From the UHGV virus genome UHGV-0139758: a stretch of 38,533 nt of DNA; one strand, written 5' to 3'. Below, in pieces: positions 3,334 to 28,545 of the stretch. Made by a program: the position numbers and the translations under genes. Source of the stretch: a virus. The number at the start of each line of letters is the position of its first letter. Within the stretch, counting starts at the first letter, position 1. The notes beneath the pieces are model-generated. The model was given only the letters and a program-made list of their open reading frames with translations. It did not search any database and had not been told where the DNA came from.

Positions 3334-3616
3334 AGAAGCGCTAAAACCATTGTTTGATCAGTGGTTAGAGGAAGCATTGCCAGAAATAGGGTGTAGGTTT
3401 AGACAGGAGATTGAATTGGAGCTAGATGCTAAAAACCAACAAACATTATTCAATCAAACGGAAATGGCGAAACGGCAAGGTGTTTCTGTAGAAACATTTA
3501 GAAAATGGCGGAAAGCTGGCTTGCAAGCAGAACCTAATCCTACTGGTAAATTGTTATTTGATTTAAATAAAGTTAATAACTGGCGAAAAGATAATGCTGC
3601 TAAGAAAGAACTTTAA
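3320..3616 (+). CDS. HTH DNA-binding protein; excisionase or regulator candidate
   Basis: 98 aa. The C-terminal half carries a MerR/Xis-like HTH: TEMAKRQGVSVETFRKWRKAGL. Confidence 0.45.
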   Translation: MTTFEEALKPLFDQWLEEALPEIGCRFRQEIELELDAKNQQTLFNQTEMAKRQGVSVETFRKWRKAGLQAEPNPTGKLLFDLNKVNNWRKDNAAKKEL

Positions 3617-3635
3617 CTAGATAAGGAGGCAGAAC

Positions 3636-3806
3636 ATGAATAAAAATAATGTAAAGCAAGACTTAACCACTCAAGAAATTGCAAAATTGATTATGGAAAT
3701 CAAACTTGGAATTTTACAACAATTAGAAAAAGCGCTTGACCAGGCTATAAAAGAGAAAAACTCCACAATGGTTGCAGCCATTGCAGAGATTTTGAAAAGT
3801 TATTGA
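3636..3806 (+). CDS. Small hypothetical protein (56 aa)
   Basis: ATG at 3636 with an AAGGAGG RBS at 3623-3629. Translation: MNKNNVKQDLTTQEIAKLIMEIKLGILQQLEKALDQAIKEKNSTMVAAIAEILKSY. Absent from the ORF track only because it is under 60 aa. Confidence 0.5.
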   Translation: MNKNNVKQDLTTQEIAKLIMEIKLGILQQLEKALDQAIKEKNSTMVAAIAEILKSY

Positions 3807-24076: not shown

Positions 24077-24943
24077 ATGTCAATCAAATATTACACTAAA
24101 CAATATGCAGGTATTTTGCCAGAACTGTTTGCTAAAAAAGCAGTATTTTTACGTGCTTTCGGAGGTACTTTACAGACAAAAGACGGAGTCTCTCAAAACG
24201 ATACATTTCTAGATTTGAAAGTTACAGATACGGACGTTGTTATTCAAGCATATTCGACAGATGAAAATGTAGGATTTGGAACAGGGACAGGCAGCTCAAG
24301 CCGTTTTGGTAAACGTAAAGAAGTTAAATCAGTCAATAAACAAGTTAAATATGAAGCGCCACTTTCAATTCATGAAGGTGTCGATCAGTTTACTGTAAAT
24401 GATATTCCTGATCAAGTTGTAGCAGAGCGCTTAGCTTTGCATGCTGTTGCCTGGGCGCAACATGTGGATAACTTGTTAGGCAAAGCATTATCTGACAATG
24501 CAAGTGAAGAACTAACCACTACATTAGATGAAGCTGGTATTACAAAACTATTTTCTAATGCTCATAAGAAATTTGTTAATAACAATGTTTCTCAAAACGT
24601 TGCATGGGTTGCCTATGTTAATTCAGACGTTTACGACTTATTAATTGATTCAAAACTTGCAACAACTTCTAAAAATTCATCCGCTAATGTTGATGAACAA
24701 ACTTTATACAAATTTAAAGGGTTTGTTTTAGAAGAGTTACCAGATGAAAAATTTCAACCAAATGAGGTAGCAATTTTTTCAGCTGATAACGTAGGTGTAG
24801 CTGGCGTAGGTATTCAAGTAGCACGTGCTATGGATTCAGAAGATTTCGCAGGCACAGCGTTACAAGCGGCAGGTAAGTATGGCAAATATATCCCTGAAAA
24901 AAATGCTAAAGCGATTATTAAAGGTGTTGCCCCAAAAGTGTAG
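24077..24943 (+). CDS. Major capsid protein (0-frame product); a -1 frameshift variant would extend to 25011
   Basis: 288 aa, in the standard position after the scaffold gene. The slippery heptamer C_CCA_AAA lies at 24931-24937, two codons before the stop. Confidence 0.8.
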   Translation: MSIKYYTKQYAGILPELFAKKAVFLRAFGGTLQTKDGVSQNDTFLDLKVTDTDVVIQAYSTDENVGFGTGTGSSSRFGKRKEVKSVNKQVKYEAPLSIHEGVDQFTVNDIPDQVVAERLALHAVAWAQHVDNLLGKALSDNASEELTTTLDEAGITKLFSNAHKKFVNNNVSQNVAWVAYVNSDVYDLLIDSKLATTSKNSSANVDEQTLYKFKGFVLEELPDEKFQPNEVAIFSADNVGVAGVGIQVARAMDSEDFAGTALQAAGKYGKYIPEKNAKAIIKGVAPKV

Positions 24944-24982
24944 CCCCGAAAGTTGGTAAACTAACGCCGACAACAAGCGGGG
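24931..24982 (+). other. Putative -1 programmed ribosomal frameshift cassette at the capsid 3' end
   Basis: The heptamer C CCA AAA is in the correct zero-frame register (gcC|CCA|AAA). A 6-nt spacer separates it from the stem CCCCG (24944-48) ... CGGGG (24978-82). The -1 frame stays open for 24 codons (SVAPKVGKLTPTTSGVVIEMEEGA) to the TAG at 25009-11. Confidence 0.55.
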
Positions 24983-24999
24983 TTGTTATTGAAATGGAA

Positions 25000-25027
25000 G
25001 AAGGAGCTTAGTCTCCTTCTTTTTTTA
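25000..25027 (+). terminator. Strong intrinsic terminator after the capsid gene
   Basis: GAAGGAG-cttagt-CTCCTTC perfect 7-bp stem followed by T8. Confidence 0.8.
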
Positions 25028-25040
25028 GGAGGAATCTAAG

Positions 25041-25445
25041 ATGTCCTATATTGATTTTGAAGAGTTTAAAGAGCTTACAGGCGCCGCAGATGAATATAAA
25101 GATAACTTTGACAAATATTTAGTAAAAGCCACCGCAGCGATTGATAACGTAACGAATTACTTTTATCAGTTCAATGATATAATGAAAGATTCTAGGCAAT
25201 TTAGAGTGAAACAGTTTAAACTCGCTCTGTGTGCGCAAATAATGTATTTTGTCGATGTTGGTGCGGATACGTATGAAAGTATCAACAATGCCCCTCAAAG
25301 CTTTTCAGCAGGCCGTACGAGTATTTCTAATGCCAGTCGCTACAATCCTTCTGGAAATAACGAAAGTAAGTCGTTAACTGCCGAAGACGTTTATTTGTAT
25401 CTGGAAGGTACAGGTTTGTTATATCGAGGTGTTTCGTCATGCTAA
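25041..25445 (+). CDS. Head-tail connector / DNA-packaging protein (gp6-like)
   Basis: 134 aa with an AGGAGG RBS; first gene after the capsid terminator. Confidence 0.55.
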   Translation: MSYIDFEEFKELTGAADEYKDNFDKYLVKATAAIDNVTNYFYQFNDIMKDSRQFRVKQFKLALCAQIMYFVDVGADTYESINNAPQSFSAGRTSISNASRYNPSGNNESKSLTAEDVYLYLEGTGLLYRGVSSC

Positions 25446-26507: not shown

Positions 26508-26986
26508 TGTTATTAAAAATGGATATCCAAATGTTTGCACGTGAAAAAAATGCGAAACGTGAACACTATATCGCTGAATATACACCAGGGAAAGAAACAG
26601 CTCCTACAGAAGATACGGAATGGTTACGACTAGCTAAATATATCTCTACCATTGGTGACGATTCAGACGAAGAAACAGACGACACAGGTTTTTATGACGG
26701 TGATGGTACACCTGAAACAACGGTGGTATCAGTATCTGGTACGTATACACCAGAAGGCATGTACGATGCAGAAGACCCAGCACAACAATTAATTGCAAGT
26801 AAAAAATACAAATTAGGTGACGGCCGTAAAATCTGGCATAAAGTCGTACAAACCAATGGTGATGTTTATATTGGACGTGCAACAGTTACAGGCATTAAGG
26901 CAGGTTCTGGCGATGCGACAGCATACGAAGAATTCGGCTGCTCAATTAAATTTGACACGTTGCCAGAAATCAGCCCAAAAGCGTAG
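26507..26986 (+). CDS. Major tail protein (0-frame product); a -1 frameshift variant would extend to 27054
   Basis: 159 aa. ATG at 26507 with a GGGGGA RBS. The heptamer C_CCA_AAA lies at 26974-26980, two codons before the stop, mirroring the capsid gene. Confidence 0.7.
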   Translation: MLLKMDIQMFAREKNAKREHYIAEYTPGKETAPTEDTEWLRLAKYISTIGDDSDEETDDTGFYDGDGTPETTVVSVSGTYTPEGMYDAEDPAQQLIASKKYKLGDGRKIWHKVVQTNGDVYIGRATVTGIKAGSGDATAYEEFGCSIKFDTLPEISPKA

Positions 26987-27025
26987 CCCCAGTAGTCGAC
27001 AAAATAACGCCGACTACAACTGGGG
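26974..27025 (+). other. Putative -1 programmed ribosomal frameshift cassette at the major tail protein 3' end
   Basis: agC|CCA|AAA heptamer, a 6-nt spacer, then a perfect stem CCCCAG (26987-92) / CTGGGG (27020-25). The -1 frame encodes SVAPVVDKITPTTTGVIIDMKEGI to the TAA at 27052-54. The cassette is about 75% identical at the nucleotide level to the capsid cassette. Confidence 0.55.
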
Positions 27026-27055
27026 TCATCATAGATATGAAAGAAGGAATCTAAC

Positions 27056-27508
27056 ATGGCGAGAGAATATATCGTTTATAAAGGTGAGGAAGTCGTTGTT
27101 CCGGCTAGTCCAAGCCCTTTAGAAATTATAGGCATTGAGCCCAATACGGATGTTCCAGCAGGAACGTACCAAGTAGGGTTTGTAGACGGTGGAGAGAAAG
27201 TAGATGTACCGGCATTTAAGACGTTACCGATTGCTGTAACTGGCTTAGAGTTTTCTCCTAAAACATCAACAGCAGATGCGGGTACTGCAGGTAGCCGACA
27301 AATCACAGCAACTGTCTTGCCTGAAAATGCAACCAACAAAAAAGCAACCTATGAGATTACGCCTGAAACAGAAGGTCTTGCTGTCTCTGAAACAGGAAAT
27401 ATTACTTGGACAGAAGCGGTACCGGCTGGTGTTTATACCACAACAGGAACAACAGAGGATGGTAAAAAAACAGCTCAACACACCTTAACATTGAATAATC
27501 AATCATAA
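27056..27508 (+). CDS. Ig-like (Big_2-type) domain protein
   Basis: ITATVLPENATNKKATYEITPETEGLAVSETGNITWTEAVPAGVYTTTG matches the bacterial Ig-like group 2 signature. It is a separate ORF with a GAAGGA RBS, 1 nt after the frameshift-extension stop. Confidence 0.65.
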   Translation: MAREYIVYKGEEVVVPASPSPLEIIGIEPNTDVPAGTYQVGFVDGGEKVDVPAFKTLPIAVTGLEFSPKTSTADAGTAGSRQITATVLPENATNKKATYEITPETEGLAVSETGNITWTEAVPAGVYTTTGTTEDGKKTAQHTLTLNNQS

Positions 27509-27517
27509 ATACGAAAA

Positions 27518-27550
27518 TAAAGGGCAGCTATTTGGCTGTCCTTTTCTTAT
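27518..27550 (+). terminator. Intrinsic terminator after the Ig-like gene
   Basis: AAAGGGCAGC-tatttg-GCTGTCCTTT (one G-U pair) followed by TCTT. Confidence 0.5.
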
Positions 27551-27562
27551 GGAGGTAATTAA

Positions 27563-27970
27563 ATGAAAGCATTAGAAATTAACGTAAAACGCACAGGTTT
27601 CCCAGTCATTTTAGCAGGACATGAATTTTTCTTTGATAGTTCACCAGAACATTTAATCGAGGTACAAAAAAACTATGAAGCGTTTGAAAAAGAAGTAGAT
27701 TCGATTGAAGGACCCAATGAAGACGATGCAGATAGCTTGGACTTAGAGCCGTACAAAGAGTTGTTAGCAAAAGGGTATGACGTCATGTTAGGCGAAGGGA
27801 CATTCGATACGTTGTATGCGGATATTCCAGACATCAACGCATGGCTAAACGCTTTCTTTGATTTATACAACGGGATTGCCGATCAATTGGACGAATTCAA
27901 AGAGGAACAAACTAAAAATTCCCAACGCTTAAAACAGAAGTACTTGAAAAAAGTTAGTAAGAAAGGGTGA
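27563..27970 (+). CDS. Tail assembly chaperone (gpG-like)
   Basis: 135 aa, acidic. It sits between the major tail protein and the tape measure gene, where the G-type chaperone normally lies. Confidence 0.6.
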   Translation: MKALEINVKRTGFPVILAGHEFFFDSSPEHLIEVQKNYEAFEKEVDSIEGPNEDDADSLDLEPYKELLAKGYDVMLGEGTFDTLYADIPDINAWLNAFFDLYNGIADQLDEFKEEQTKNSQRLKQKYLKKVSKKG

Positions 27971-27975
27971 GCGCA

Positions 27976-28545
27976 ATGCGGTTAAACGATCCGCTGCCCT
28001 CTTTTTTTGAGTTTGAAGAGAAAGAGTATCCTCTAAATCTTGCTTTTGATCGTGTGTTGGATGTTTTCGACGTGCTGTCTGATGACGGGATGAATCTTCC
28101 AGACAAGGTAGAGACTTGTATAAAGATTTTAGTTGGTGATGTAGGACTAGATATTGTATCTCAATTTGAGATGTTCAGAGAACTATACGATACCTATCTC
28201 GTCTTTGGTAAAAAATCAGAAGTGGTAACCGATGAATTAGGAAATGTTATGCCGATGAAACCAGTCAGTAAAGATATGGACATTGTATTAGATGCAAAAT
28301 ACATTTATGCCTCTTTTCGACAAATAGGTATCAATTTATTTGAGGAACAGGGCCGTTTGTCTTGGGAAGAATTTCAAGTATTGCTAGAATCGTTGCCAGA
28401 TGACACACCTATTCAAAAAATTAAAAGTATCCGTAACTGGAAACCGCAAAAAGGAGAAAGTACTGAACACAAGGAACAAATGAGAGAACTTCAAAGGCGT
28501 TATGCATTACCAAATTACGTAAGGGAGGAGGAAGAAGATGGCTGA
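27976..28545 (+). CDS. Tail assembly chaperone (gpT-like); in the -1 frame relative to the gpG-like ORF
   Basis: This ORF opens at 27961, in the -1 frame relative to the upstream gene. ATG at 27976 with an AAGGG RBS. A G/GT-type fusion is possible, but no canonical slippery heptamer lies in the 9-nt overlap. Confidence 0.55.
   Translation: MRLNDPLPSFFEFEEKEYPLNLAFDRVLDVFDVLSDDGMNLPDKVETCIKILVGDVGLDIVSQFEMFRELYDTYLVFGKKSEVVTDELGNVMPMKPVSKDMDIVLDAKYIYASFRQIGINLFEEQGRLSWEEFQVLLESLPDDTPIQKIKSIRNWKPQKGESTEHKEQMRELQRRYALPNYVREEEEDG

Follow-up and report, generated by a model that had tools for sequence, protein, structure and literature searches.

The closest described precedents for the system discussed here are phages that recode the 3' ends of their major structural genes. 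For Lactobacillus phage A2, it is established that the head gene and the tail gene both undergo a required -1 frameshift (Atkins et al., 2016; PMC5009743), which results in the pairs gp5A/gp5B for the major head protein and gp10A/gp10B for the major tail protein (Garcia 2004, Rodriguez 2005, as cited in PMC5009743). The Listeria phages PSA, A118 and A500 make Cps and Tsh in long forms via a +1 or -1 frameshift (Zimmer 2003, Dorscht 2009, cited in PMC5009743). For other phages, recoding is reported to add a C-terminal fibronectin type III (FN3) or immunoglobulin-like (Ig-like) module to a minority of the major tail or capsid subunits (PMC5009743). In this study, we have examined the 3' end of the major capsid protein (MCP) gene of the virus genome UHGV-0139758 (a stretch of 38,533 nucleotides, referred to as the window), for which an original prediction had proposed a -1 frameshift cassette matching a second one in the major tail protein (MTP) gene. 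Judged by comparison with related phages, the core of that interpretation is supported: the capsid gene very probably uses a programmed -1 ribosomal frameshift that adds a 24-residue tail. The kind of frameshift is known and is that of the A2 class; what is new is the product, a predicted FN3 domain split between the recoded tail and a separate gene.

The window MCP matches the phrog_840 major head protein (E 1.5e-135) and shares about 80% amino acid identity with its counterparts in Lactococcus phage ul36 and in the 987-group phages of Streptococcus thermophilus (tblastn); eleven IMG/VR contigs encode an MCP 100% identical to it, and when the phage collection was searched by megablast with the MCP region, there was no match. 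The 0 frame ends ...GTT GCC CCA AAA GTG TAG, and therefore C_CCA_AAA stands in the true X_XXY_YYZ register, separated by one sense codon from the stop (TAG, 24941-24943). The heptamer is followed by the 6-nt spacer GTGTAG (24938-24943) and then by CCCCG (24944-24948), which pairs with CGGGG (24978-24982). In the -1 frame, translation reads PK SVAPKVGKLTPTTSGVVIEMEEGA and then a stop, 24 codons past the shift, so that the predicted long form (MCP-L) has 311 residues against the 288 of MCP. Heptamer, spacer, stem and open frame all lie exactly where the original prediction had put them. When scanned with a hidden Markov model (HMM) of such tails, the MCP tail scores 34.2 bits in a match ending 3 residues short of the stop. 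Six copies of CCCAAAA occur on the + strand, and only those at 24931 and 26974 are in register with a long open reading frame (ORF); both lie 3 codons before the stop of that ORF, and the -1 frame that they open is exactly 26 codons in each case. The 17-nt motif CCCAAAAGNGTAGCCCC is found twice in the window, at these same two positions, against 0 expected from 100 shuffles. The heptamer mutation suggested earlier as a check, CCCAAAA to CCGAAGA, had been taken to be silent in the 0 frame; it is synonymous in the -1 frame, and in the 0 frame it turns Pro-Lys into Arg-Arg. A heptamer change that is silent in the 0 frame is GCC CCA AAA to GCA CCG AAG.

We read the A2 genome (NC_004112) directly for comparison: its head gene ends ACC CCA AAA GCG TAA and its tail gene GCC CCA AAA GCG TAG. 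The identical C_CCA_AAA thus stands one sense codon before the stop in both genes of A2, and the extension there starts PKSV. By its layout, the frameshift site of the window belongs with the A2-type head and tail -1 cassettes and is of a known kind. There are nevertheless clear differences between A2 and the window. The A2 extensions are complete Ig-like (Big_2-type) domains of about 85 residues, whereas the window cassette adds 24 residues and has the rest of the domain in a separate gene; an extension that is a whole Ig-like domain is the only A2-type feature that the window cassette lacks. The A2 MCP also belongs to another family, being a 400-residue precursor with a mature peptide. With PSA, A118 and A500, the window would share the production of both major structural proteins in two forms through 3'-end recoding, and their +1 site, CCC_UGA or CCC_UAA, is also used by relatives of the window (L183, L184).

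In the MTP gene, the 0 frame ends AGC CCA AAA GCG TAG and the -1 frame reads PK-SVAPVVDKITPTTTGVIIDMKEGI followed by a stop. The heptamer is in register at both sites of the window, in the same way as in the A2 head and tail genes, which bears out the pairing of the two cassettes in the original prediction. The membership of the two tails in one family, also proposed there, holds as well: they are identical at 15 of 26 residues. Of the 20 nucleotides by which their DNA differs, 11 occupy third positions of the -1 frame, and the ratio of non-synonymous to synonymous substitution (dN/dS) is 0.22. Pooled across 27 and 9 unique relatives, the corresponding ratio of polymorphisms (pN/pS) is 0.55 and 0.36, with the changes concentrated at third positions. 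Premature stops of the -1 frame in relatives, which had been named beforehand as evidence that would count against the cassette, are absent, the frame being open in 41 of 41 unique tail DNAs; of the 36 class A/B tail sequences tested, all or almost all have stops in the other two phases. A chance ORF and a pure DNA repeat were both considered and rejected, on the selection acting on the tails, the two occurrences of the motif where none is expected and the register of both sites.

Neither the identity of the tail as FN3 strands A-B nor the location of the remainder of the domain in the gene that follows the MTP cassette had been recognised in the original prediction. This gene, for which we propose the name "catcher", bears no annotation beyond "phage tail protein" or "major tail protein" (phrog_341). 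It has its own Shine-Dalgarno (SD) sequence (GAAGGA), its ATG lies 1 nt after the stop of the MTP tail, and the sequence upstream of the ATG is closed by stops in the same frame. All 71 homologues found by word index share one starting residue and the pattern M..(Y/F).(I/V)YKG..., and in an exhaustive phmmer search the alignments of the catcher-like matches (147-250 residues) open at query residues 22-30 and within the first 10 residues of the match. Further evidence comes from two catcher homologues, P0053 and P0048, whose genes directly follow an HK97-type MCP gene. In the gap of about 100 nt between the two genes, the +1 frame after CCC_TAA reads NKPVNVDASNVTETSVTLAWD and NTPVNLTGDPTDTTVRLSWE, respectively, each up to a stop; judged by their sequences, these are textbook FN3 strands A-B, conserved Trp included. 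Residues 2-53 of P0053 match only positions 29-81 of the 84 positions of the Pfam fn3 profile (PF00041, cut-off 25 bits), at 27.8 bits; the 21-residue recoded peptide of the same contig alone matches positions 2-21, and the two together match positions 2-81 in one stretch, at 42.8 bits. P0048 joined to its own recoded peptide matches positions 3-82 at 30.7 bits.

For the window itself, tail plus catcher aligns unbroken across the junction with contiguous repeats of the 4805-residue protein P0147 (phmmer; 39% identity over 75 residues, E 4e-8), window LTPTTSGVVIEM-EEGA|MAREYIVYKGEE...VDVPAFKTL against P0147 VTPTTNTAVINWTNNNGLSATYTVKQGGT...VDVPAFTTL. An AlphaFold2 (AF2) model of the MCP tail fused to the catcher, with the homologues as alignment, has a mean predicted local distance difference test score (pLDDT) of 94.7, and the tail forms strands at residues 3-8 and 13-17 (pLDDT 94 and 89). 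Foldseek matches this model to tandem Ig/FN3 structures. The seven-strand beta-sandwich for tail plus catcher is seen in the AF2 model only, and a sequence search of the PDB found solved relatives for the Big_2 half and none covering the FN3 half. Taken together, the profile matches, the alignment and the model identify the predicted MCP and MTP tails as FN3 strands A-B, not a domain of their own, and the catcher as strands C-G plus Big_2. One predicted FN3 domain is divided between two separately translated polypeptides, because a stop terminates the tail and because the catcher, which has an SD and an ATG of its own, is preceded by stops in its frame; all its homologues start at strand C.

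We built the HMM from the tails and scanned every fetched locus with it in six frames. Matches were obtained on 95 locus strands, 80 of which carry exactly two tails, 2.0-2.6 kb apart, and none carries more. The 15 single-tail loci were examined as counter-examples and rejected as such: 14 are cut too short to include a second tail, and L167 has a diverged one. Each tail ends 0-3 residues before a stop and, in the -1 or the +1 frame, overlaps a long ORF at its stop; these ORFs have the size of an MCP (280-396 codons) in one case and of an MTP (160-200 codons) in the other. The recoding sites vary across lineages: the -1 sites are C_CCA_AAA plus one codon, G_GGA_AAG TAG, G_GGA_AAC TAA, TCG_GGG_GAG TAA, TCA_AAA TAA and A_AAA_AAA TAG, and the +1 sites (for example in L183 and L184) are CCC_TAA and CCC_TGA. 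There is one catcher gene per locus. It follows the MTP tail in the window, L202, L233 and Enterococcus phage phiEf11, and the MCP tail in L183, L184 and L234-L245, and therefore one tail is always maintained some 2 kb from the catcher gene. Neither a relic nor a second recoding event fusing tail and catcher readily accounts for a tail kept that far away.

For a long head form, phage phiEf11 offers a hint from experiment. Its virions contain two prominent head-protein bands, of 38 and 41 kDa, from one gene, for which the authors proposed a 21-residue -1 extension of ORF10, calling this interpretation speculative (PMC5221750). We find that this extension, IEAPKVESVIPTTDGASIVLS, is a member of the window tail family and stands behind A_AAA_AAA, and that phiEf11 ORF16 is a catcher homologue; the authors drew no connection between the extension and FN3 or ORF16. 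The MTP tail of phiEf11, VDSPSVESVTPTFDGASTELS (L265, 5640-5715), is in frame with ORF15, and therefore every tail-tube subunit would carry it. ORF15 migrates at 28-30 kDa against 21.5 kDa predicted, which was left unexplained (PMC5221750). The phage thus shares with the window the host species, the tail family and the catcher homologue, and differs in its slippery site, in the family of its MCP and in the in-frame MTP tail. For the window, the host is deduced: we take it to be a temperate siphophage of Enterococcus faecalis because the homologues of its neighbouring decoration gene, the catcher, carry the names of E. faecalis phage proteins.

The cassette itself is more widespread than the FN3-type tail. 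The PKSVAP cassette motif occurs in at least 116 IMG/VR stretches; among the matches listed, the -1 frame starts PKSVAP or PKRVAP in all, and is then followed by different modules, which are Big_2 (about 90 residues), HeH/SAP-like (45-74 residues) or short tails (20-26 residues). The MCPs that are about 80% identical to that of the window (ul36, phage 9871 and others) carry Big_2, of some 85-90 residues, in the -1 frame at the same C-terminal position. Because these MCPs carry a whole Big_2 there, the C-terminus of the window MCP should be exposed on the outside of the capsid.

Based on these results, we propose the following model, in which the first step is strongly supported, the second is backed by sequence and model, and the last two go beyond them. 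(i) A fraction of the ribosomes would slip back one base on C_CCA_AAA, aided by the stem-loop beginning at the stop codon. Having thus moved past the TAG of the 0 frame, they would add the tail, giving MCP-L beside MCP; the equivalent event at 26974 would give a long MTP (MTP-L) with a homologous tail. (ii) The tail would provide FN3 strands A-B, with strands C-G at the N-terminus of the separately translated 150-residue protein and Big_2 at its C-terminus. (iii) Exposed on capsid and tail tube alike, the tail could then serve as a docking tag, to which the FN3(minus A-B)-Big_2 protein would bind by completing the beta-sandwich in trans; one decoration gene would serve head and tail, the displayed copy number would be set by frameshift efficiency, and Big_2 would adhere weakly to surface carbohydrates, a role also proposed for other Ig-like domains of phages. 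(iv) The hairpin and T7 run that hold the -1 stop may attenuate, end or stabilise the abundant capsid transcript. Complementation in trans is suggested because there are two tails but one catcher per locus, and on the sequence and model evidence we consider it reasonably probable that both tails act as docking tags and that a single decoration protein, shared between them, completes the fold in trans. With somewhat less confidence, and only slightly on the favourable side, the same evidence points to a split-FN3 tag and catcher in many temperate siphophages of Enterococcus and related Firmicutes, with a tag of about 20 residues on a subset of MCP and MTP subunits and a single catcher. In this wider group, the tags may be produced by -1 or +1 shifts at several unrelated sites and occasionally by in-frame fusion. 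Other short tails behind the PKSVAP cassette, with collagen-like or other small genes next to them, may be further pairs of tag and partner.

The RNA structures at the capsid site are predicted ones. The stem-loop begins 3-6 nt past the heptamer and consists of an 8-bp outer helix (24941-24948/24978-24985) and a 6-bp inner helix (24952-24957/24966-24971), with a folding free energy (dG) of -18.6 kcal/mol and z -2.1 (RNAfold); the MTP copy is stronger (dG -20, z -4.5). Its CCC/GGG core is invariant in 36 related tail sequences, where it is also fixed by Pro and Gly codons, and RNAalifold returned only this 3-bp core for the 36 tail regions. At columns 12/42, both third codon positions, 9 sequences have A:U, 7 have G:C and 19 are unpaired, and overall the apparent covariation of the stem-loop across relatives is modest. 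Behind the capsid tail, a perfect 7-bp hairpin enclosing the -1 stop and followed by eight T's had been described. The stem, GAAGGAG (25000-25006)/CTCCTTC (25013-25019), and the TAG (25009-25011) inside its loop are present as described, and the hairpin is kept in close relatives; the T run (25020-25026) has seven T's, not eight. The hairpin after the Ig-like gene, that is, the catcher gene, had been called weaker, which is not so by energy (dG -15.8 vs -13.1), only its U tract being poorer. That the capsid-tail hairpin acts as a terminator, and that this meets the stoichiometry of the structural transcripts, we can only infer. We also observed that AGGAGGAATCTAAGATG before the start of the head-tail adaptor gene (25027-25043) is nearly identical to AGAAGGAATCTAACATG before the start of the catcher gene (27044-27058), so that, from its sequence, the capsid terminator hairpin looks like an insertion into a shared cassette that was duplicated together with the ribosome-binding site of the next gene. 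The features of the window are collected in Table 1.

Table 1. Features of the capsid and tail gene cassettes and of the catcher gene, in window coordinates.
Feature	Position	Strand	Basis
Major capsid protein (MCP) gene, 0 frame, 288 aa	24077..24943	+	ORF list and translation
Slippery heptamer C_CCA_AAA, X_XXY_YYZ register	24931..24937	+	Sequence; register check of all six CCCAAAA; layout of phage A2
-1 frame extension SVAPKVGKLTPTTSGVVIEMEEGA with stop TAG 25009-25011	24938..25011	+	Translation; HMM; P0147 alignment; AF2
Predicted stimulatory stem-loop, outer helix UAGCCCCG/CGGGGUUG, inner helix GUUGGU/GCCGAC	24941..24985	+	RNAfold
Terminator-like hairpin after capsid tail, loop CTTAGT holding the -1 stop	24996..25026	+	Core 25000-25006/25013-25019; T7 25020-25026
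Major tail protein (MTP) gene, 0 frame, 159 aa	26507..26986	+	phrog_820 major tail protein, E 1e-60; sequence
Paralogous cassette in MTP gene	26974..27054	+	Heptamer 26974-26980; 0-frame stop TAG 26984-26986; stem-loop 26986-27026; stop TAA 27052-27054
Proposed catcher gene, 150 aa, predicted FN3 strands C-G and Big_2 Ig-like domain	27056..27508	+	phrog_341; Big_2 residues 60-142
Terminator-like hairpin after catcher gene	27519..27544	+	RNAfold dG -15.8, z -3.2

Several observations weigh against the model as a whole or in part. In phiEf11 virions, no peptide from the proposed extension was detected (PMC5221750). The two-tail rule could partly reflect shared ancestry of the structural modules. 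The Pfam fn3 profile has no match in the window's own tail plus catcher, a pair that is too diverged to be detected by it. The AF2 model is that of a cis fusion, in the alignment of which the tail is present in only 2 of 38 rows, and a single-sequence AF2 prediction of the fusion has a pLDDT of 35. At the RNA level, the covariation score of the stem-loop among the 36 relatives is 0.154, against 0.090 in shuffles and 0.144 in a control slid by +3; the capsid-tail hairpin (z -1.7, RNAfold) has no significance compared with shuffles; and a consensus terminator scan does not list the hairpin at 25000.

The alternative that survives best accepts the frameshift and denies the docking. Here the tail would be the evolutionary remnant of a formerly continuous, frameshifted FN3-Big_2 extension, cut by a stop and start in the B-C loop, or it would act alone, for example by stabilising contacts between subunits or as a signal for assembly or for a chaperone, and the downstream protein would get to the virion by another route or not at all. 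Among relatives, continuous frameshifted Ig extensions are indeed the common state, and the annotation of the catcher names nothing more specific than a tail protein. A remnant, however, would not be expected to stay open, hold its length and remain under purifying selection, nor to be kept at both MCP and MTP in every long-enough locus, behind several unrelated recoding sites and in either gene order; and the catcher, which lacks two of the seven strands, is conserved with an identical N-terminus in all homologues found. We regard this alternative as possible but doubtful.

It is also conceivable, and in our view improbable, that there is no recoding at all, the two 80-nt segments being duplicated non-coding or regulatory DNA, such as RNA structures, an SD and a terminator behind highly expressed genes, in which the open -1 frame is incidental. 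Part of the similarity is at the DNA level, since homology between the MCP and MTP cassettes extends to GGAATCTAA(G/C)ATG, where the next gene starts; the SD-like motif GAAGGA encodes the last residues of the tails (EEGA, KEGI), and the CCCC/GGGG arms of the stem fall on conserved Pro and Gly codons. Non-coding DNA would nevertheless leave unaccounted for the third-position bias with its low dN/dS, a frame open in all unique relatives where the other phases have stops, and a peptide that in relatives matches fn3 positions 2-21 and completes the domain. Phage phiEf11 has the MTP tail in frame, and the identical heptamer, identically placed, has an experimental precedent in A2.

Less probable still is that the long form arises from slippage of RNA polymerase on a run of A's and not from ribosomal frameshifting. 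Some relatives do have runs of seven A's (A_AAA_AAA in phiEf11), where polymerase slippage is plausible, but the window has only four, a tract too short for efficient polymerase slippage. The in-register heptamer with its spaced stem-loop fits ribosomal -1 frameshifting, and other lineages use G_GGA_AAG or CCC_TAA. Finally, a +1 shift or ribosome hop at ...GGA ATC TAA C ATG..., which would join MTP-L to the catcher as MTP-FN3-Big_2 and make the capsid copy a non-functional duplicate of the first half, is suggested by the single nucleotide between the stop of the MTP tail and the ATG of a gene continuing the same domain, and by stops within hairpins as at known bypass sites, but is barely credible and was rejected, given that gap and frame vary among loci (TAA-C-ATG, TAA-GA-ATG, TAG-AT-ATG, elsewhere 12-34 nt), that every catcher has its own SD and ATG with no conserved slippery sequence or matching take-off and landing codons, and that a conserved second tail without a catcher gene behind it would be left unexplained.

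If the docking model is right, how does it relate to other ways of displaying Ig-like domains? In Bacillus phage SPP1, gp17.1* reportedly represents a minority of major tail subunits that receive a C-terminal FN3/Ig-like module by recoding, and frameshift-added Ig-like domains are said to be found in phages generally. In these cases, the whole domain is covalently attached in cis, whereas the predicted domain of the window is divided over two polypeptides. T4 Hoc and T5 pb10 are separately encoded proteins that display Ig-like domains non-covalently on the finished capsid; unlike the catcher as proposed here, they use a dedicated capsid-binding domain and sites formed by the lattice, involve no recoded tag whose fold they would complete, and are not common to head and tail. 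The principle of a short beta-strand peptide completing the Ig-like sandwich of another polypeptide is known from SpyTag/SpyCatcher (derived from CnaB2), from the donor strands of chaperone-usher pili and from engineered FN3 fragments. We compare these with the window system as functional analogues only and claim no membership: in the window, two strands (A-B) would be donated instead of one, on a tag made by frameshifting on virion proteins, and the system, as known here from sequence and model, gives no sign of a covalent bond such as the isopeptide bond of the SpyCatcher type. In the literature, we found no earlier description of a split FN3 domain or of a strand-complementing decoration protein, which is not proof of absence.

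A number of side observations concern the same gene families. In L248 and L259 (~3490-3764), an Ig module of the NATNK type is fused directly to the MCP, without an FN3 part, through a -1 shift at GGG_GAG TAA, and therefore this module exists in covalent and in split forms. HeH/SAP-like extensions (...TVDQIKAYMDKHGLAYTSTMSKADLLKAV...) of 45-74 residues are found on MCPs via the cassette or via +1/-1 equivalents, in the IMG/VR loci L102, L106, L146, L077, L121, L145 and L155, and also in L003, L005 and L058. In a second phage group (L067, 1705-1790 and 3998-4086; L070), two copies of the PKSVAP cassette lie 2284 nt apart and have different short tails, namely SVKSEGIKGGVKLTAK on an ORF of about 410 codons and SVKTIAKQGGELTIIAN on one of 278 codons. 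Right behind the first of these tails is a small gene (85-171 residues; MA(D/E)T.DRS.EFLKA...VVAVG..GTG.VDV.G...GDY...FDTD), and judging by sequence the tails and this gene may form a second tag/partner family. Short -1 tails of yet another type, VAPEVGKAKAGETKVAK and VTPKVGAAKVGEAQL, are followed by the gene of a collagen-like (Gly-X-Y repeat) protein in L156 (~11844, - strand) and L018 (2473-2530), which may represent one more pairing of a recoded tail and a decoration protein.

The catcher homologue P0067 has 345 members and is common in Listeria monocytogenes, and no catcher homologue was found among the Listeria phage records of the collection. The Staphylococcus Kayvirus GH15 (L266, 2341-3749) encodes a catcher homologue, ORF149, with 43% identity to P0067; it is flanked by two small genes annotated as Ig-like or "major tail protein" and lies between sigma factor and exonuclease genes, far from the structural module. 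Downstream in the window, a putative tail chaperone gene (27563-27970) overlaps a -1 ORF (27967-28545), for which the usual G/GT frameshift is expected. The end of this gene (27944-27970) contains A AAA AAG at 27947, where the -1 frame is closed by TAG (27955) and TAA (27958), and therefore any G/GT shift would lie within AAG AAA GGG TGA (27959-27970).

In conclusion, if the frameshift alone is true, the window adds one more member to the A2/PSA class of capsid and tail frameshifts. If the docking model is also true, it would explain the very short recoded extensions found on the major proteins of the head and the tail in many phages of Gram-positive bacteria, such as the head protein of phiEf11 that is larger by 3 kDa, and also the small Ig-like gene, routinely annotated "major tail protein" (phrog_341), that adjoins the MCP or the MTP gene. 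Annotation pipelines would then need to call recoded tails. The natural tag of about 20 residues and its binding domain could be usable for phage display and surface engineering in phages of Enterococcus, Listeria and Streptococcus. Completion of a fold with a frameshift-made tag, common to capsid and tail and dosed by recoding efficiency, would represent a new mode of attachment.

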